64,000 bases of DNA from Candidatus Methylomirabilota bacterium (GTDB lineage Bacteria; Methylomirabilota; Methylomirabilia; Rokubacteriales; CSP1-6): contig JBKPAK010000015.1 in NCBI GenBank assembly GCA_046726415.1, positions 14,279-78,278 of the forward strand. The letters run 5' to 3'. Below are positions 13,447 through 52,818 of this stretch, in pieces (position 1 is the first letter of the stretch; every line of letters begins with the position of its first letter). Under the pieces are notes generated by a model. The model was not told the DNA's origin and did not search any database. It saw only the letters and a list, made by a program, of their open reading frames with translations. Made by a program: the position numbers and the translations under genes.

Positions 13447-14310
13447 CTACCACTCGAAGTCGTAACGGCGGCGCATGAGCTCGAGATACTCGGAGTCCGG
13501 CATGGCGCGTCCGGTGGCGACGTACTCTTCATCGGTCAGGCGCTGCCGGCCAGCCGTGAGGCGCCTAGCGTCCTCCCCCACCAGGTAGCGCAGTTTCGGT
13601 TGCGCGGTGGTGACTGCCTCGTAGATGACCTCGGCCACGTCAGACGGTTGGCTCGGCATCTTCATCTGCATCTGGTAGAAGAGCAGGAGCCGGTGCACGT
13701 GAGCGGCGTAGGGCGAGGCGGGATCGGCGAACCGCTGGGCCTTGGTGAAAATCGGCGTCACCACGACGCCGGGCTCGATGATGACCACCCGGATCCCGAA
13801 GTCCAGGACTTCCTGGGCCAGCGCCTCGCTCATCGCCTCCAGGGCATGCTTCACCGCGGAGTAGTGACCATGGCCGGCGACGGCCAGCCGGCCGGCGATG
13901 GAGCTGACGTTCACGATGGCCCCGCAGCGGCGCTCGCGCATGCCGGGAAGCACGGCCTGGATCGTGCGGATCGCGCCGAAGTAATTCGTCTCGAACAGGC
14001 CTCTGGCCCAGTCGACGGGCACCTCCTCGATGGGACCGCCCCCGCCGATTCCCGCGTTGTTGACGAGGACGTCGACTCGGCCCGCTCGATCGAGGATTTC
14101 GCCGACGCCGCGCGCGACTGATGCGGGGTCGTTCACGTCGAGCACGACCGGATAGATCGGAAGCTTCTCCGCATCGATGGCCTGCGTCAACTCGGCCGCC
14201 GTGGCCAGGGTGCGGACGCCGGCCTGAACGTCGTGGCCAAGCCGGGCAAAGTGAAGCGCCGTGGCGAGACCGATCCCGCTGCTACTGCCGGTGACGAGAA
14301 CCACGGGCAT
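13447..14310 (-). CDS. Short-chain dehydrogenase/reductase
   Basis: VLVTGSSSGIG, VNNAG, YSAVK, EPG; ATG 14310. Confidence 0.93.
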   Translation of the reverse strand: MPVVLVTGSSSGIGLATALHFARLGHDVQAGVRTLATAAELTQAIDAEKLPIYPVVLDVNDPASVARGVGEILDRAGRVDVLVNNAGIGGGGPIEEVPVDWARGLFETNYFGAIRTIQAVLPGMRERRCGAIVNVSSIAGRLAVAGHGHYSAVKHALEAMSEALAQEVLDFGIRVVIIEPGVVVTPIFTKAQRFADPASPYAAHVHRLLLFYQMQMKMPSQPSDVAEVIYEAVTTAQPKLRYLVGEDARRLTAGRQRLTDEEYVATGRAMPDSEYLELMRRRYDFEW

Positions 14311-45843: not shown

Positions 45844-46920
45844 GTGGCGGTGAGCTTCCCGATCATCACGGGCGAAGCGGTGGCTGCCCTGCGCACCCTG
45901 GTCGGCCAGGAGATCCGCCGACCCGAACCGCATATCGAGGTGGCCACGCGCGACGCCATCCGCCACTGGGCGCACGGTATTGGGGATCGCAACCGCTATT
46001 GGTTGGAGTACGGGGTGGCCCCGCCGACCATCTTCTTTGCCCTGGATCGCATCGTGTCGGGCTACGTGGGTGGCCTGCCCGGCATCCACGCGATGTACGC
46101 CGGCACCGACTTCCGCTGGCGGCGACTGATCCGCGAAGGCGAACGCGTGGTCGGCCGCAGCATTCTCCTCGATCTCGAGGAGAAGCCCTCGACCTTCGCG
46201 AAGCGCGCTATCAAGCAGACGTACCGCACGACCTTCGTGGCCAATGATGGCGGGGTGATCGGCGAGGCAGACTCGTGGTGCTTCCGAACGGAGCGCGACG
46301 CCGCGCGAGAGCGGAAGAAGTATGCGCCGCGCGAGCCGTACCGCTACTCCCCTGCAGAGATGGCCCGGATCCGGGGCGCCTACGCGGAGGAGAAGATCCG
46401 CGGAGCCACCGATCGATCCTGGGAGGAGGTCGCCGTCGGCGAAACGCTGCCCGAGGTGGTCAAGGGACCGCTCACGGTGACGTCGATCATCGCCTTCGTC
46501 CAGGGCTGGGGCGGCCTGTACGTTCGCGCTCACGGCTTGGCCTTCGATCTCTTCGCGCGTCACCCGGCCCTGGGCATCCCCAACGAGTTCGGCGTGCCCG
46601 AACCGCCGGAGCGCGTGCACTGGGATCCCGCCCTCGCGCAGGCCGTGGGAGTGCCGGCACCGTACGACTACGGCCCCGAGCGGGTGGCCTGGCTGGGACA
46701 TCTGGTCACCAACTGGATGGGGGACGCCGGCTTCCTCGCTCGCCTCAATGTCCAGGTGCGGCGCCACAATCTCATTGGCGATACCACCTGGTGCCGCGGA
46801 CGAGTGGCGGCCAAGGCGATCGTCGACGGACGCAGCGAGGTGACGCTCGATCTCCAAGCCGTCAACCAGCGCGGCGAGACAATCGCCATCGGCCAGGCGG
46901 TGGTGGTCCTTCCCCGTTGA
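45844..46920 (+). CDS. Double hot-dog (MaoC/FAS1-like) dehydratase
   Basis: DAIRHWAHGIGD.N, APPT, VHWD..A..VG.P.PYD.G, IGDT. Confidence 0.85.
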   Translation: MAVSFPIITGEAVAALRTLVGQEIRRPEPHIEVATRDAIRHWAHGIGDRNRYWLEYGVAPPTIFFALDRIVSGYVGGLPGIHAMYAGTDFRWRRLIREGERVVGRSILLDLEEKPSTFAKRAIKQTYRTTFVANDGGVIGEADSWCFRTERDAARERKKYAPREPYRYSPAEMARIRGAYAEEKIRGATDRSWEEVAVGETLPEVVKGPLTVTSIIAFVQGWGGLYVRAHGLAFDLFARHPALGIPNEFGVPEPPERVHWDPALAQAVGVPAPYDYGPERVAWLGHLVTNWMGDAGFLARLNVQVRRHNLIGDTTWCRGRVAAKAIVDGRSEVTLDLQAVNQRGETIAIGQAVVVLPR

Positions 46921-46942
46921 CGTCGTCGGCGGAGCCGTCCGG

Positions 46943-47467
46943 CTAGCGCTCCAGTTCCACCCCAAGCGCCTCGTTGAAGCGGTTCGTGAAGTTGGCGGCC
47001 GCGATGGAGAGCGTGAGCTGCACGAGCCCTTCGGGCGCGAGACGCGCGCGGAGCGCCTCCACCAGAGCGGGATCGACCTGCACCGTGTCCGTCATCTCCT
47101 CGGCGTAGCGAATCACCAGCCGCTCCAGCTCCGAGAACAGCGGACTGGTCGCGGCGGCCGGCAGGTTCTCGAATTTCTCGCGTGACACGCCGGCCCTCTG
47201 ACCGAGGGCCGAGTTGTGGGTGACTCAGTACGTGCAGCCGTTGAGCTGCGAGACCCGTACGTAGGCGAGCTGGCGAAGGCCGAGATCGAGGGGGCCCTCG
47301 CGCAAGGTGGGGTACCACTGGAGAAAGCGCGGCAGCGAGCGCGCGTGATACGCCATGAGCTTGAAGATGTTGAGGACACGCCCGGATGCCTTCGCGAGGC
47401 CGTCGTAGATCGTCTGGACCTCGGCGGGCACCTCATCGCGTTCGAGATAGGGAAGTCTTGCGCTCAT
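46943..47467 (-). CDS. AhpD/carboxymuconolactone-decarboxylase family selenoprotein (CxxU; UGA at 47227-47225, codon 81)
   Basis: ORFs 47225-47548 and 46943-47188 are one frame: LRQLAYVRVSQLNGCTY*VTHN...FSELERLVIRYAEEMT...NFTNRFN. UGA replaces the second Cys of CxxC; a hairpin follows. Confidence 0.88.
47191..47211 (-). promoter_or_regulatory. Putative bacterial SECIS element
   Basis: CGGCCCUC-GGUCA-GAGGGCCG, stem starting 13 nt after the UGA, loop starts GG. Confidence 0.75.
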
Positions 47468-47595
47468 TCCGCCACCTCCTCCGTGCCGGATCCTAGCAGA
47501 CGCTCTGCCTCGCCGCCGCTTGCACGCCCCGCGGGCGTCTATGTACATTCCTGGTGCTCATGGAGGAGTCGATTTCCCTGGTACCCCTTCGTTGA

Positions 47596-48435
47596 ATGCC
47601 CGAGTTACCTGAGGTAGAGGTGGGGCGGCTCATCGCGCGTCGGGTGGCGGCCGGGCGCGTGATCATCCGGGTCCGCTGTGCGGACGATCCCATCGTCTTC
47701 GACGGCGTGACACCGGCCCGCTTCCGGCGCGCCTTGCTGGGACGGCGCGTGCAGACCGTGCGGCGGCACGGCAAGCACTTGTGGTTCGAATTGGACCGGC
47801 GGCCGTGGCCCATCCTTCATTTCGGCATGACGGGCGGCTTCCACACGCCGGGCGCCCGCGGCGTCAAGCTCGTCTCCAGCGGCGACCGCGATCCCGACGG
47901 CAGGTGGCCGCCGCGCTTCACCAGGCTCCACCTCGTCTTCGACGACGGCGGCGAGCTGGTGTTCGCCGATGCCCGGCGGCTTGGCCGGGTGCGCCTGCGC
48001 CATGATCCGCGCCGGGAGCCGCCCATCAGCCTCCTCGGCTTCGACGCCTTGCACGAGATTCCCTCGCTGGCGCAGTTCCACGGGCTGGTGAGTGCGCGCG
48101 CGACTCCGCTCAAGGCCCTCTTGCTCGACCAGTCGTTCGCCGCCGGGGTGGGCAACTGGATCGCCGATGAGGTGCTGTATCAGGCCGGGCTCGATCCGCG
48201 CCGGCCCGCACGCTCGCTCAGTCGCGAGGAAGTGGCCCGGCTCCGCGCGCGGTTACGGGCGGTAGTGGCGCGGTCCGCCCAGGTGCGCTCAGACAGCGAT
48301 CGCTATCCGCGTTCGTGGCTCTTCCACTACCGCTGGGGCAAGCGGGTCGGCGCGGTGACCGGACGCGGCGAGTCGATTCGGTACATCGTGGTGGCCGGAC
48401 GCACGACAGCGTGGGTGCCGTCGGTCCAGCGATGA
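47596..48435 (+). CDS. mutM: Fpg/Nei family DNA glycosylase/AP lyase without a zinc finger
   Basis: MPELPEVE, RHGKHLW, HFGMTG, DARRLG, LLDQ..AGVGNWIADE (H2TH); Cys-free C-terminus ending GRTTAWVP. Confidence 0.88.
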   Translation: MPELPEVEVGRLIARRVAAGRVIIRVRCADDPIVFDGVTPARFRRALLGRRVQTVRRHGKHLWFELDRRPWPILHFGMTGGFHTPGARGVKLVSSGDRDPDGRWPPRFTRLHLVFDDGGELVFADARRLGRVRLRHDPRREPPISLLGFDALHEIPSLAQFHGLVSARATPLKALLLDQSFAAGVGNWIADEVLYQAGLDPRRPARSLSREEVARLRARLRAVVARSAQVRSDSDRYPRSWLFHYRWGKRVGAVTGRGESIRYIVVAGRTTAWVPSVQR

Positions 48436-48491
48436 GCACAGTGAGCTGGAACACCGCGGGTCCGGTGCGGTGCCCGAGAGGAGAACCTGCG

Positions 48492-48790
48492 ATGTCACTG
48501 GCCTTGCGCAAGCTGCATCCGACCTTCGGCGTCGAGATCCTCGGGGTTGATGTCAGAGGCGTGGACGACGCCGTCTTCAAGGAGATCGTCGACGCCTTCA
48601 ACGATCACTCCGTGTTGCTCTTCCGCGGCCAGACGTTGACCGACGAGGAACAGATCTCCAACGGGCGGGTGACCTCGTCATGTGGGACAACCGCTGCATG
48701 CTGCACCGCGGCCGCCCGTGGAACGAGTCGAAGTATCGGCGAGTCATGCACCGGACGACTGTGGCCGGCGACGGGCCCACCGCCCCTGAA
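48492..48790 (+). pseudogene. TauD/TfdA dioxygenase with a large internal deletion
   Basis: N-terminus LHPTFGVEILGVD...VLLFRGQTLTDEEQI joined out of frame to C-terminus GDLVMWDNRCMLHR...RRVMHRTTVAG; the HxD core is absent. Confidence 0.8.
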
Positions 48791-49027
48791 GATAGTCCTG
48801 GTCGTGAGGTCTCGCCCGCGCGCGACGATCTAGAAAAAGAGCCACCTCAGTCGCTGTTCGCGAGCGGCGTCGCTATCCGGGTCGGCGCCGCGGCCGGTCG
48901 ACGTACCGCGTGGGCCGCTCGAACGGCCAGGCATCGCGAGCAGGAGTCCACCCGGTTCGCCCGGCGCACGCGGGGCGAGCCGTCGATCGCCCGCGCCCAA
49001 CGTCAGGAACCTTCGACACCAGGATGC

Positions 49028-49573
49028 TCAGTCCTGGCGCACCGCCGCGATGACGAGGGAGATGTGGACGCGATCGCCCAGGTACATCCCGCCGCCCTCG
49101 ATCGCCGCGTTGAAGGTCACCCCGAAGTCGCGGCGATCGATTGTGGTCTCCGCCTGGAAGGCCGCCAGCGTCTTTCCCGAGACGGGGTGCGTGCCTTGCC
49201 CCTTGAAGTGGGCGTCCAGGACGGCCGCGCGGGTGACGCCATGGATGGTCAGATCCCCCGAGATCTTCCAGTGCCTCGCGTCGACCGGCTCGACCCGGGT
49301 GCTCTGGAATGTGATGGTGGGGTGATCCTTCCCGCCGAGGAGATCTGCATCCATCAGCCGGCCCATGAGCCGCTCGTTAGTGACGTCGACGCTCGCCACC
49401 GGTATCGAAGCGCTCACGGCCGCGTCCGCCGGTCGGGTCGGATCGTAGCGCAAGGTGCCCTCGAGCGTACGGAAGCCGGTCCGGTAGACGGACATGCCCA
49501 TGTACTCGAGCGAGAACTCCACGCTCGAGTGCACCGGATCGATGGTCCAGGTCGGAAGCGTCTCTGTCGTCAT
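49028..49573 (-). CDS. YceI family lipid/polyisoprenoid-binding protein
   Basis: WTIDPVHSSVEF, P.ITFQST, GDLTIHGVT, IDRRDFG. Confidence 0.92.
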   Translation of the reverse strand: MTTETLPTWTIDPVHSSVEFSLEYMGMSVYRTGFRTLEGTLRYDPTRPADAAVSASIPVASVDVTNERLMGRLMDADLLGGKDHPTITFQSTRVEPVDARHWKISGDLTIHGVTRAAVLDAHFKGQGTHPVSGKTLAAFQAETTIDRRDFGVTFNAAIEGGGMYLGDRVHISLVIAAVRQD

Positions 49574-49583
49574 GGCCGAGTCG

Positions 49584-50678
49584 CTAGTTGAAGACCACCA
49601 CGCCGCGGGCGACCTGCCCGCTCGTCAGGAGCCTGAAGCCCTCGTTGATGTCGGCCAGGGCGTAGGTCCGACTGACGAGCTCGTCGATCTTCAGCCGGCC
49701 GTCCATGTACAGATTCACCAGGCGGGGAAAGTCGATGTTCGGCCGCACCGAGCCGTACATCGTGCCTTTGATGCACTTCTCCTGCAGGGCCATCGTGTAG
49801 GGCGTGATGGGCGCCCGCACGCTCATCGCGGCCATGCCGACAATGACCGCCGTGCCGCCCGGGCGGATGGCGTCGAGGATCTGCAAGGTGGTGGCTTCGC
49901 CGCCGATGGCGTCGAAGGCGTAGTCGACGCCACGCCCACCGGTGAGCTTGCGGACCTCCTCCACCACATTCTCGCGCGAGGCGTTCACCGTGTGGCTGGC
50001 TCCGAACTCCTTGGCGTAGGCGAGCTTGTTGTCGAGAAGGTCGGCGGCGATAATCTTCTCCGCCCCCACCAGCTTCCCGCCCTGCACGACATTGAGTCCG
50101 ACGCCGCCGCAGCCGACGACGAGCATGGACGCGCCGGCCTCCACTTTCGCGCAGCTCATGACGGCGCCGACGCCGGTCGGCACGCAGCACCCGGTGAGCG
50201 CCGCCTGGGGCCACGGCATGTCCTGACGGATGGGCACCAGCATCTCCGCCGGGCACACCACCGACTCGGCAAACGTCCCGATGCGCGCCATCTGTCTCAG
50301 ATCCTCGCCGTTGCGGCGCATGCGGCAGGTGCCGTCGAGCAGGCCCCACCGCGGCGAGCTGTAGCCATCACACAGGATGGAGCGACCGATGGAGCAGTAG
50401 AGGCAGCGCCCGCAGTGCGGGCGGAAGGAGAAGATGACGTGGTCGCCCGCCTTGACGTTGGTGACGCCGGCTCCGACCTCGTCCACGATGCCCGCCGCCT
50501 CGTGGCCGAGCACCATGGGAAGCGGCAGCGGCCAGTCGCCGTTCATGATGTGCCAGTCGCTGTGGCAGATGCCGGCAGCCTTGACCTTCACCCGCGCCTC
50601 TCCGGCGCGCGGCCCTTCCTGCTGAACGTCGACGACCTGGAGCGGCTCGTTGGCCTTGTAGAGGACGGCTGCCTTCAT
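49584..50678 (-). CDS. Zinc-dependent alcohol dehydrogenase
   Basis: GICHSD, LGHEAAG, CGRCLYC...C, GCGGVG. Confidence 0.95.
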
Positions 50679-50889
50679 CCGGATGCCTCCATACCGACAG
50701 GCTCTGATCGGGGCCCATGGGGCGGTTATTCATGCCGAGGGCGCGATCATGCGGGGGCGCCGCCGGGGTGTCAAGAGGTCGCGGACGAGGTCCAGCGAAA
50801 GGATGTCCCGCTTGACGCCTGTCGCGTCGAGGCGGCATCATCGTCCCGTCATCACGCGACGGTCGACCCGCTCGCGCGAGGAGGAGACC

Positions 50890-51312
50890 ATGAGCAGCGA
50901 CGACAAGATCGATAGCATTCGATCGTCCAGCAGCGGCACCGTAGGGCGTGCGGTGAGTCGGGTGCGGGACGCGCGCCTCACCCTCGATTCGTCGTCCCGG
51001 CCCCAGGCCGACGTCCTAACCAACAGCGAGGCCTTCCTGGCCGGCATCTCGTCGTGCGGCGTCACCCTCATCGAGGCCTATGCCCAGGAGACCAACGTCC
51101 CCTTGAAGGGGATGGACGTTACCATCGAAGGCATCCGCACGGCAAGCGAGCCCAACCGGTTCGCGGGCGTGACGATGCGCTTCCAGCTGGGAGGGGTGAG
51201 CCAAGCGCAGGCGGAGCATCTCGTCGAGACTTACAAGGGTCGCTGACCCCTCTACCGCACGGTCGCGGCCGCGACCGCAGTGAAGATCGACGTCACCACC
51301 GTCCATGCGTGA
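50890..51312 (+). CDS. OsmC family selenoprotein (UGA at 51244-51246, codon 119)
   Basis: GAGGAG RBS; EAFLAGISSCGVT...HLVETYKGR*PLYRTVAAATAVKIDV. UGA aligns with the Cys of the family's RCPV motif (ERCPVHQTL in 1859-2284); a hairpin follows. Confidence 0.87.
51260..51277 (+). promoter_or_regulatory. Putative bacterial SECIS element
   Basis: CGGUCGC-GGCC-GCGACCG, stem starting 13 nt after the UGA, loop starts GG. Confidence 0.75.
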
Positions 51313-51386
51313 CTCTGGATTCGCGATGGACATGGCCATGAGCTCGCTCACCTGGAGGGCGGCGCCCTAGCCACACGCCCGACGGA

Positions 51387-51545
51387 TCAGCGACGGCCGG
51401 CCTCGAGGCGGAAGCGGACACCCGGCCGGGCTCGACCGCCGCTGACGCCGATCGGCGTACCGTCCGCTCTCCAGCAGGCGGCACCCGTGAGGTCGCCATC
51501 GATCCCGATGGCGTTCATGCCGCCCAGCATCTCGGCCCCGCCGCG
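51387..51545 (-). pseudogene. C-terminal remnant of a gamma-glutamyltransferase-family gene
   Basis: GGMNAIGIDGDLTGAACWRADGTP, resembling the terminal GaaDpR.dG motif; no upstream body. Confidence 0.55.
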
Positions 51546-51693
51546 GAGCCGAGTGGGTGATTGGTCACCACCATGCCGCGCGACGCCGTGGCCGGCCGGT
51601 TCTCCGCCGTGACGGGAGTGCCCGCTCGCGTGGGCCAGCCGTCTGCGGTCATCGGAATCCTCCAACCGGGGATACCGCTAGAATCAAGGGCGT

Positions 51694-52818
51694 ATGGGCG
51701 AGGGCCGGCTCGTTTCCCTCGATGTGTTCCGAGGGCTGACCATCGCGGGCATGATTCTCGTCAACAACCCCGGGAGCTGGAGCGCCGTCCATCGGCCCCT
51801 CACCCACGCCGAGTGGCATGGCTGGACGCCCACCGATCTGATCTTCCCCTTCTTCCTGTTCGCCGTGGGCGTGTCCATCACCCTCGCTCTGGCACCACGA
51901 CTGGAGCGCGGCGAGCCGCGCGCCCGCCTGATGGTGAGAATCGTGGGCCGGTCAGCCTTTCTTTTCGCGCTCGGCCTCTTCCTGGCCGGGTTCCCATCCT
52001 TTGACTTTGCCGCGATTCGAATTCCCGGAGTGCTGCAACGGATTGCCGTGTGCTATCTCGCGGCCGCTCTGCTCTTTCTCGCGACGTGGCCCCGGCACCA
52101 GGTGGCCATCATGGGGGCGTCGGCCGCAAGCCTCCTCCTCGGATACTGGGCACTCATGATGTTGGTGCCGGTGCCGGGATTCGGGGCCGGCAACCTCGGC
52201 AAGGAGGGCAACCTCGCGGCGTACATCGACCGGGCCGTCCTCGGTCCGCATATCTGGCGAGCGGCGAAGGTGTACGACCCCGAGGGAATCCTCAGCAGTC
52301 TTCCCGCCATCGCTACCACTCTGGGCGGCGTGCTCACCGGCCAGTGGCTTCGCTCCTCGCGGCCGCACGTCAGGCAGGCGGTCGGCATGGCGGGCGCCGG
52401 TGTCGCGGCCGGCGCCATCGGATTCACGTGGGGCCGGTGGTTTCCCATCAACAAGGCGCTGTGGACCAGTTCGTACGTCGTCTTCGCGGCGGGCGCCGCG
52501 CTCGTGGTCCTGGCGGCCTGTTACTGGCTGGTCGAGATCAGGCGATGGACGCGCTGGGCGACGCCGTTCGTCATCTTCGGCACCAACGCCATTGCCGCCT
52601 TCGTGCTCTCCACGTTCGTCGCCCGCCTACTGATCCTCGCGAAGGTCGCCGACGGCGAACGAGGGTCAGTGAGTCTGCACCGATGGATCTACACGCACCT
52701 ATTCGCCCCATGGGCAGAGCCGGTCAACGCCTCGCTGTTCTTCGCGCTCGCCTATGTCCTCCTCTGGCTCGGCGTGATGAGTGTGCTCCACCGCCGGCAC
52801 ATCTTCATTCGCGTGTAG
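51694..52818 (+). CDS. HGSNAT/NagX-like (DUF5009/DUF1624) membrane acyltransferase
   Basis: RLVSLDVFRG, ILVNNPG, HAEWHG.TPTDLIFPFFLF, GVLQRI, DPEG, PINKALWT. Confidence 0.9.
   Translation: MGEGRLVSLDVFRGLTIAGMILVNNPGSWSAVHRPLTHAEWHGWTPTDLIFPFFLFAVGVSITLALAPRLERGEPRARLMVRIVGRSAFLFALGLFLAGFPSFDFAAIRIPGVLQRIAVCYLAAALLFLATWPRHQVAIMGASAASLLLGYWALMMLVPVPGFGAGNLGKEGNLAAYIDRAVLGPHIWRAAKVYDPEGILSSLPAIATTLGGVLTGQWLRSSRPHVRQAVGMAGAGVAAGAIGFTWGRWFPINKALWTSSYVVFAAGAALVVLAACYWLVEIRRWTRWATPFVIFGTNAIAAFVLSTFVARLLILAKVADGERGSVSLHRWIYTHLFAPWAEPVNASLFFALAYVLLWLGVMSVLHRRHIFIRV

Follow-up and report, generated by a model that had tools for sequence, protein, structure and literature searches.

Two in-frame UGA codons in a Rokubacteria genome as predicted selenocysteine codons with ordinary bacterial SECIS hairpins

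We analyzed a 64,000-nucleotide stretch of DNA (here called the window) from a Candidatus Methylomirabilota bacterium (GenBank assembly GCA_046726415.1, contig JBKPAK010000015.1, forward-strand positions 14,279 to 78,278). Two genes in the window, an AhpD/CMD-like gene and an OsmC-like gene, each contain an in-frame UGA followed by an RNA hairpin, and we evaluated these UGAs as candidate selenocysteine (Sec) codons and the hairpins as candidate Sec insertion sequence (SECIS) elements. Positions without a contig name are those of the window. The source genome is that of a soil-type Rokubacteria (Methylomirabilota), 7.6 Mb in 352 contigs with 67.5% G+C.

The AhpD/CMD-like gene occupies 46943..47467 on the minus strand, from an ATG at 47467 to a TAG at 46943, and encodes 174 residues when TGA is translated as Sec (U). 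Its UGA, codon 81 (47227..47225, minus strand), lies in frame in the motif NGC-T-Y-U-VTH, a CxxU arrangement. The Pfam domain PF02627 (CMD/AhpD) was matched at 48.5 bits against a cut-off of 23 and spans the TGA, and TIGR00778 was matched as well (34.9 bits; cut-off, 27.8). U81 aligned with the second Cys of NGCAYC in the solved CMD-family proteins 7xw1 and 2ijc; opposite it in paralogs from the same genome stand three TGA codons, one Cys, and one Val. Orthologs of the protein share a start of the form MxARLPY.

The OsmC-like gene (50890..51312, plus strand; 140 residues) begins with an ATG at 50890 and ends with a terminal TGA at 51310..51312. Its in-frame UGA, codon 119 (51244..51246, plus strand), falls at the position of the C-terminal conserved Cys, in the motif R-U-P-L-Y, and the Pfam domain PF02566 (OsmC; 45.5 bits; cut-off, 27.5) likewise spans the TGA. 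In alignments with the solved Ohr proteins 9jx6 and 9jxc, C56 lies opposite the first conserved Cys and U119 opposite the second (VCP). The C-terminal Cys of Ohr/OsmC proteins is the resolving Cys. In both the AhpD-like and the OsmC-like gene, the coding signal runs on past the TGA.

The original prediction described one layout for the two genes, which lie on opposite strands and belong to unrelated families: a UGA, 13 nucleotides (nt), a stem of 7 to 8 bp, and a loop that starts with GG. This description proved exact to the base, and the families were confirmed as distinct, CMD/AhpD on the minus strand and OsmC on the plus strand. The AhpD hairpin (47211..47191, minus strand) follows a 13-nt spacer and pairs the 5' arm CGGCCCUC (47211..47204) with the 3' arm GAGGGCCG (47198..47191) in an 8-bp stem around the 5-nt loop GGUCA (47203..47199), which starts 21 nt past the UGA. 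A ninth pair, U.G, is possible at 47212/47190, and the centroid energy of the hairpin alone is −18.3 kcal/mol. The OsmC hairpin (51260..51277, plus strand) also follows a 13-nt spacer; its 7-bp stem is formed by the 5' arm CGGUCGC (51260..51266) and the 3' arm GCGACCG (51271..51277), and its 4-nt loop GGCC (51267..51270) starts 20 nt past the UGA. The 55-nt segment containing it has a minimum free energy (MFE) of −17.2 kcal/mol.

Conservation of the OsmC UGA and hairpin was evaluated in orthologs, which were retrieved with an alignment of OsmC-like orthologs as the query, a single-protein query having returned none. The relatives come almost wholly from metagenome-assembled genomes (MAGs) labeled Candidatus Rokubacteria, Rokuibacteriota, or Methylomirabilota. 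With one locus from an unpublished genome set aside, TGA stands at the aligned position in 108 of 108 ortholog loci, representing 88 distinct sequences. Among the latter, the 5' arm CGGTCGC is present in 86, the 3' arm GCGACCG in 78, and a loop beginning with GG in 83, while loop positions 3 and 4 vary. The third-codon-position entropies of the five stem codons are 0.18, 0.00, 0.37, 0.09, and 0.00 bit, compared to mostly about 1 bit (range, about 0.4 to 1.5) at equally conserved residues off the stem. Synonymous sites of the stem are thus frozen among the orthologs, a sign of selection on the RNA and not on the protein.

The AhpD-like gene has orthologs of two kinds. A search of 251 genomes of the phylum gave 52 close matches (a tally that takes in one unpublished genome), of which 26 contain one TGA and 26 contain none. 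Of the 38 loci examined codon by codon, 19 have TGA at the aligned position and 19 have a Cys codon (TGC or TGT). All 19 Sec forms retain the hairpin in register with at least 6 of 8 pairs, a loop of the form GG[U/G]C[A/U], and the peptide A-L-G-Q/L-R across the hairpin region. In contrast, the hairpin is lost from 17 of the 19 Cys forms, all with TGC, which have 0 to 2 contiguous pairs (2 to 6 of 8 in total) and different peptides over the region (AAGRR, AAARR, and similar). The remaining two Cys forms use TGT, which is one base away from TGA; they come from the same order (L029 in genome G052 and L030 in genome G050) and retain the hairpin with 7 and 8 of the 8 pairs. From their sequences, these two look like recent Sec-to-Cys conversions that carry a fossil SECIS. 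Across the Sec forms, 93.1% of the cells of the hairpin are paired, versus 29 to 58% when the partners are slid; one pair appears as G-C, G.U, and A-U among the orthologs, and another changes from C-G to U-A.

The AhpD-like comparison is a clean natural experiment on Sec versus Cys. It indicates that the RNA hairpin places limits on the protein sequence, with ALGQR persisting only alongside UGA, and that the hairpin decays once Sec is replaced by Cys, the TGT forms looking like fresh intermediates.

We then evaluated how often the shared layout arises by chance, using a hairpin descriptor written in Python and scanned over all 179,577 TGA trinucleotides on both strands of the whole genome. The strict pattern (loop start 19 to 22 nt past the TGA, loop of 4 to 5 nt starting with GG, stem of at least 7 bp) occurs at 201 of them. 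It follows only 1 of 3,475 terminal TGAs, defined as those that end a frame with the coding signal absent afterwards, and 3 of 439 TGAs with a codon-usage signal on both sides, two of these three being the UGAs of the AhpD-like and OsmC-like genes. Dinucleotide-preserving shuffles of the downstream 60-mers contain it in 14 of 14,400 cases, and shuffles of the two focal downstream sequences contain it in 1 of 5,000 and 0 of 5,000. The outcome that would have told against the original prediction, an equal frequency of the pattern behind true stops or in shuffled DNA, is therefore not what these counts show. The hairpin signal is one of position and loop sequence and not of stability. A search of positions 46800 to 51700 against Rfam, with E values up to 1, found no family that matches either SECIS element. 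The sole Rfam match in that search, at 49092-49146 within the YceI-like gene described below, was to a microRNA family, below threshold (29.3 bits; gathering score, 70), and is a chance match.

The genome encodes a complete Sec pathway. In profile searches of the genome, selB scored 374 bits against a cut-off of 242, with profile positions 1 to 580 of 581 covered, and selA scored 592 bits, above its curated cut-off. Contig C313 carries these two genes and the tRNA-Sec gene (71 bits; cut-off, 47) next to one another (C313:28622-32915). The selD gene (336 bits, above its curated cut-off) is located apart from this cluster at C223:11973-13040 and contains one in-frame TGA of its own, so that SelD is itself a predicted selenoprotein, with U at SCAG-U-ASK. 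With selA, selB, selD, and tRNA-Sec all above curated cut-offs, the genome has the Sec-decoding trait. TGA is also the commonest true stop, terminating 1507 of 2334 long open reading frames (ORFs) with high third-position G+C (GC3); therefore the genetic code is not reassigned, and reassignment of TGA was rejected as an explanation.

To survey Sec codons genome-wide, we used a search that makes no reference to hairpins. Read-through peptides with X at the TGA were built for 1,241 TGAs with a two-sided coding signal and compared with the genome itself, and the paralog alignments were filtered by coding score and by the fraction of Cys or stop opposite the TGA. At 61 TGAs, at least half of the paralog residues opposite X are Cys or another TGA. 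Under loose filters, W, R, or S also appeared opposite TGA; these cases were spurious alignments of antisense or off-frame ORFs and were removed. A further 83 candidates were added on the strength of a hairpin 15 to 22 nt downstream, and 222 N-terminal TGA cases were screened likewise.

In the first batch, 25 of 75 read-through ORFs were accepted by family domain (Pfam). Another 48 were rejected as same-frame neighbor genes (including ABC permeases, Tct transporters, and toxin-antitoxin pairs), C-terminal extensions, or ORFs without a family; two, L208 and L226, remain uncertain. In the second batch, 23 of 24 were accepted by Pfam, the 24 having been picked by eye for a redox motif around U. 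The accepted total is 48 Sec-UGA genes by family domain, to which a second round with the accepted genes as queries added 4 TGA-aligned paralogs. The count, obtained with a home-made screen and not with deep-Sep or bSECISearch, should be taken as a minimum, and the 48 may miss some Sec genes because 50 of 69 second-batch candidates were rejected by eye without a Pfam scan. No more than 3 of the 48 show near-identity (91 to 97.5%) to another copy, and these could derive from co-assembled strains. The original prediction took two cases within about 4 kb as a hint of a large unannotated selenoproteome; what stands of this is the size.

By family, the 48 genes comprise 15 AhpC-TSA/redoxin genes (UxxC, PGUT, and similar motifs, one of them fused to NHL repeats), 6 CMD/AhpD genes (five besides the AhpD-like gene of the window), 6 UGSC genes, 5 OsmC genes, 4 GrdB genes, and 1 PrdB-like gene. 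There are 2 genes each for Rhodanese, Glutaredoxin, and Rdx/SelW-like proteins and 1 each for MoeB, DsbA, PDO/thioredoxin, DsrE, and SelD.

With these genes in hand, a broader descriptor (a perfect stem of 6 bp or more and a loop N?G[G/U] starting 16 to 22 nt past the UGA) was applied genome-wide. It fitted 32 of the 43 Sec-UGAs that had been found without any hairpin criterion, compared to 123 of 3461 terminal TGAs (3.6%), so that the enrichment at Sec codons over true stops for which the original prediction proposed to look is present. When the descriptor was moved to 26 to 32 nt, the difference disappeared (1 of 43 Sec-UGAs versus 133 of 3461 terminal TGAs). Dinucleotide shuffles fitted it in 406 of 14,400 cases, and the full set of accepted Sec-UGAs fitted it in 37 of 48. 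The 37 hairpins that fit have spacers of 8 to 15 nt, most often 11; their loops begin 16 to 22 nt past the UGA, with peaks at 18 and 20, and are 3 to 6 nt long, their stems comprise 6 to 10 bp, and 3 of the 37 have CGG...CCG ends. Because spacers and stem ends vary in this way, what the two focal genes have in common is the distance to a G-first loop and not an exact 13-nt spacer or CGG/CCG ends. A loop N?G[G/U] 16 to 22 nt past the UGA is enriched about 20-fold at Sec codons and could serve to flag Sec genes in relatives.

The interval between the two focal genes contains a DNA glycosylase gene of the Fpg/Nei type (47596..48435), what is left of a TauD/TfdA-family dioxygenase gene (48492-48859), the YceI-like gene (49028..49573, minus strand), and a zinc alcohol dehydrogenase gene (49584..50678, minus strand). 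The TauD/TfdA remnant covers profile positions 3 to 57 and 236 to 267 of 267 in two frames, with about 180 profile positions deleted. Nothing ties the AhpD-like and OsmC-like genes into one operon.

Several other loci of the genome were recorded during the survey. An AhpC-TSA gene (W-U-P-Y-C) followed by an OsmC-like gene (ALAF-U-LMT) occurs as an adjacent pair in three copies, at C156:53841-55366 (L204/L205), C257:11598-12973 (L253/L254), and C193:23201-24488 (L224/L223). The windows around U are 91 to 97.5% identical among L205, L223, and L254 and between L204 and L253; the three pairs represent either genuine paralogs, each an operon with two Sec genes, or strains that were assembled together. 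The rhodanese-MoeB fusion L165 (C103:56376-57659) has U in place of the Cys of PS-C-AEAGVLG (PRK08762, 537 bits); MoeB is a listed yet rare selenoprotein family. L208 (C156:71640-72188) is an ORF of cytochrome c-like type whose in-frame TGA, at residue 130, falls within a weak Cytochrom_C match (residues 63 to 157; E value, 3.4e-5); it is possibly an unusual selenoprotein or a broken gene. L226 (C193:39721-40827) is a copy, in degenerate form, of L225, a CMD selenoprotein gene; in L226 the C-H-Y before U is deleted and similarity is partly lost downstream; judged by its sequence, it is probably a pseudogene. L304 (C94:7799-8749) is a TauD-family ORF of full length; its in-frame TGA falls at a non-redox site (AYTV-TGA-WEGL), has a hairpin after it, and was read as a nonsense change and not as Sec.

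Taken together, these data lead us to conclude with high confidence that both in-frame UGAs are Sec codons, each served by an ordinary bacterial SECIS hairpin. The products would be two thiol/selenol redox proteins, an AhpD/CMD-like protein with a CxxU motif and an OsmC/Ohr-like protein with a C-terminal Sec. When a ribosome reaches either UGA, the apical loop of the hairpin (G, then G or U, about 20 nt downstream) would hold SelB with Sec-tRNA(Sec), and SelB would deliver selenocysteine and forestall the release factor. The hairpin would then unfold, and its bases would be read as codons +5 to +11. The spacing shared by the two genes may then express the geometric demand that SelB makes on the ribosome, a demand that would hold for most of the approximately 50 selenoprotein genes here.

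Several observations weigh against this conclusion. Sec insertion and SelB binding in these genes are predictions from sequence. The folding energies of the two focal regions, with z values of −1.93 and −0.21 relative to shuffles, are ordinary for DNA of this G+C content. The invariant OsmC stem gives no covariation signal at all, because it does not vary. In the AhpD hairpin, changes on both sides are found in just 2 pairs, a count matched by 18 of 500 shuffles, so that covariation alone is weak support, and the percentage of paired cells was matched by 111 of 500 shuffles. The contrast with the Cys forms reflects few independent events, since a single genus supplies 15 of those 19. Finally, 11 of the 48 accepted Sec-UGAs lack a hairpin that fits the descriptor, and the estimated contamination of the 352-contig assembly is 4.66%.

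Three other explanations were weighed. The one that survives best follows the suggestion of the original prediction that the geometry is a lineage-specific SECIS pattern: Sec would be inserted, and the hairpins would belong to a SECIS class recognized by a diverged SelB. The observed distances offer some support, since the loop starts at 16 to 23 nt, with peaks at 18 and 20, and is thus confined to part of the 16 to 37 nt that the bSECISearch model allows, although this is the range of a model and not a distribution measured in other phyla. As given in PMC13188914, that consensus places the element 3' of an in-frame UGA and calls for a loop of 3 to 9 nt, an upper stem of 4 to 16 bp, a G at loop position 1 or 2, as a rule with G or U after it, a UGA-to-loop distance of 16 to 37 nt, and an MFE of at most −7.5 kcal/mol. 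Both the AhpD and the OsmC hairpin fall within the loop, stem, G-position, distance, and MFE limits as they are set out there, without a structural difference. Because they agree with the general model in every structural item, including all four of its structural constraints, we regard the hairpins as canonical and not lineage-specific. The variable spacers, loops, and stems among the 37 hairpins, the rarity of CGG...CCG ends, and a SelB that matches the general selB model end to end also speak against a separate class. We consider this explanation unlikely, and on this point the original prediction is not supported.

A second explanation is that the UGAs are read through by near-cognate insertion of Trp, Cys, or Arg, or by a local reassignment, with the hairpin as a generic stimulator. 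The residue inserted here is deduced from sequence, and downstream hairpins are known to stimulate read-through in other systems. Against this stand the complete Sec pathway of the genome, the use of TGA as its main stop codon, the location of each UGA exactly at a redox Cys position, and the alternation of Sec and Cys among orthologs of the AhpD-like gene. Furthermore, the loop G[G/U] lies at the distance that the published SECIS model, in the form given in PMC13188914, demands. Non-Sec read-through is accordingly very improbable.

Least credible of all is that the TGAs are independent nonsense mutations or assembly errors in pseudogenes and the hairpins chance products of G+C-rich DNA: although the fold energies are ordinary, the window contains a decayed gene in the TauD remnant, and a degenerate CMD selenoprotein copy (L226) exists elsewhere in the genome, this explanation is already contradicted by ortholog conservation (TGA at all 108 OsmC loci, and TGA or Cys in equal halves at the AhpD loci), and the coding signal and the single Pfam domain that extend across each TGA, together with the scarcity of the strict pattern at terminal TGAs and in shuffles, also speak against it. 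The original prediction argued from the shared spacing against two independent nonsense mutations; what the orthologs conserve, the Sec genes of the genome, and the enrichment of hairpins at Sec codons relative to true stops bear out that view.

Sec decoding by way of ordinary SECIS hairpins thus remains the reading that we favor, and under it the known workings of bacterial Sec insertion are unchanged. Its practical consequence lies in annotation. Gene callers terminate such genes at the UGA, and unless Sec is modeled, predicted proteomes would therefore lack the catalytic residue of about 50 redox proteins here and of their Rokubacteria orthologs.

Selenoproteins of both families have been described. 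AhpD-like selenoproteins with PF02627 and a CxxU motif ("AhpD-like 2") are reported in the Global Ocean Sampling (GOS) survey (PMC2398784), and AhpD-like selenoproteins are also among those covered by PMC13188914. The AhpD-like gene of the window resembles those described there in its Pfam family, its CxxU motif, and the placement of Sec at the second Cys of CxxC. It differs from the curated NCBIfam selenoprotein equivalogs, as its product scores below all three cut-offs: 77.8 bits versus 310 for NF053654 (YciW-related (seleno)protein), 22.4 versus 175 for NF041238, and 50.2 versus 81.8 for TIGR01926. We therefore place it in a separate subfamily. Two paralogs, L166 at 239 bits and L285 at 158 bits, likewise fall short of the NF053654 cut-off.

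OsmC-like selenoproteins (PF02566, UxxT) are known from the Sargasso Sea and GOS surveys (PMC2398784) and are included in PMC13188914. The OsmC-like protein of the window shares the fold family of the known form, represented by NF041052, and has Sec at a conserved redox Cys. In the known form, as described in those sources, Sec is at the N-terminal Cys, in UxxT, whereas the focal protein has Sec at the C-terminal Cys, in R-U-P-L-Y, and contains no UxxT. The focal protein reached 23 bits against the NF041052 cut-off of 95, while L205, another OsmC-like gene of this genome (ALAF-U-LMT), reached 163 bits. The selenoprotein catalogue table of the 2026 review (PMC13188914) does not list a C-terminal-Sec OsmC placement. 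The article text of BSepDB, its web tables aside, names neither the OsmC family nor Methylomirabilota, and a literature search on Rokubacteria selenoproteins returned nothing relevant.

In light of these comparisons, we regard two findings as mildly new: the OsmC subfamily with Sec at the C-terminal Cys position, whose SECIS is frozen, and the natural experiment that the AhpD-like gene offers on Sec versus Cys. A larger joint claim can be put forward only tentatively, as somewhat short of probable. It would hold, first, that the OsmC-like gene belongs to a subfamily spread across the phylum, with Sec at the C-terminal (resolving) Cys position, which is absent from the catalogue table and the NCBIfam model named above; second, that the SECIS stem of this gene is frozen across the 108 orthologs; and third, that the selenoproteome of this genome ranks among the three largest of bacteria, its predicted Sec genes, at least 52 in number, being dominated by expansions of peroxiredoxin, AhpD, OsmC, UGSC, and GrdB-like genes, and that it occurs in a lineage not known as a strict anaerobe.

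The size of the selenoproteome is not without precedent. According to PMC13188914, the Delta 1 symbiont of Olavius algarvensis has at least 57 selenoproteins, and a Methylomirabilota MAG with 63 predicted selenoprotein genes (cited there from Deng et al. 2026) exceeds the former record of 57. A large selenoproteome in Methylomirabilota, as reported there, is already in print and is not new here. The genome analyzed in this study belongs to the same phylum as the 63-gene MAG, and its 48 Sec-UGA genes accepted by domain, with the 4 added by paralogy, are of the same order.

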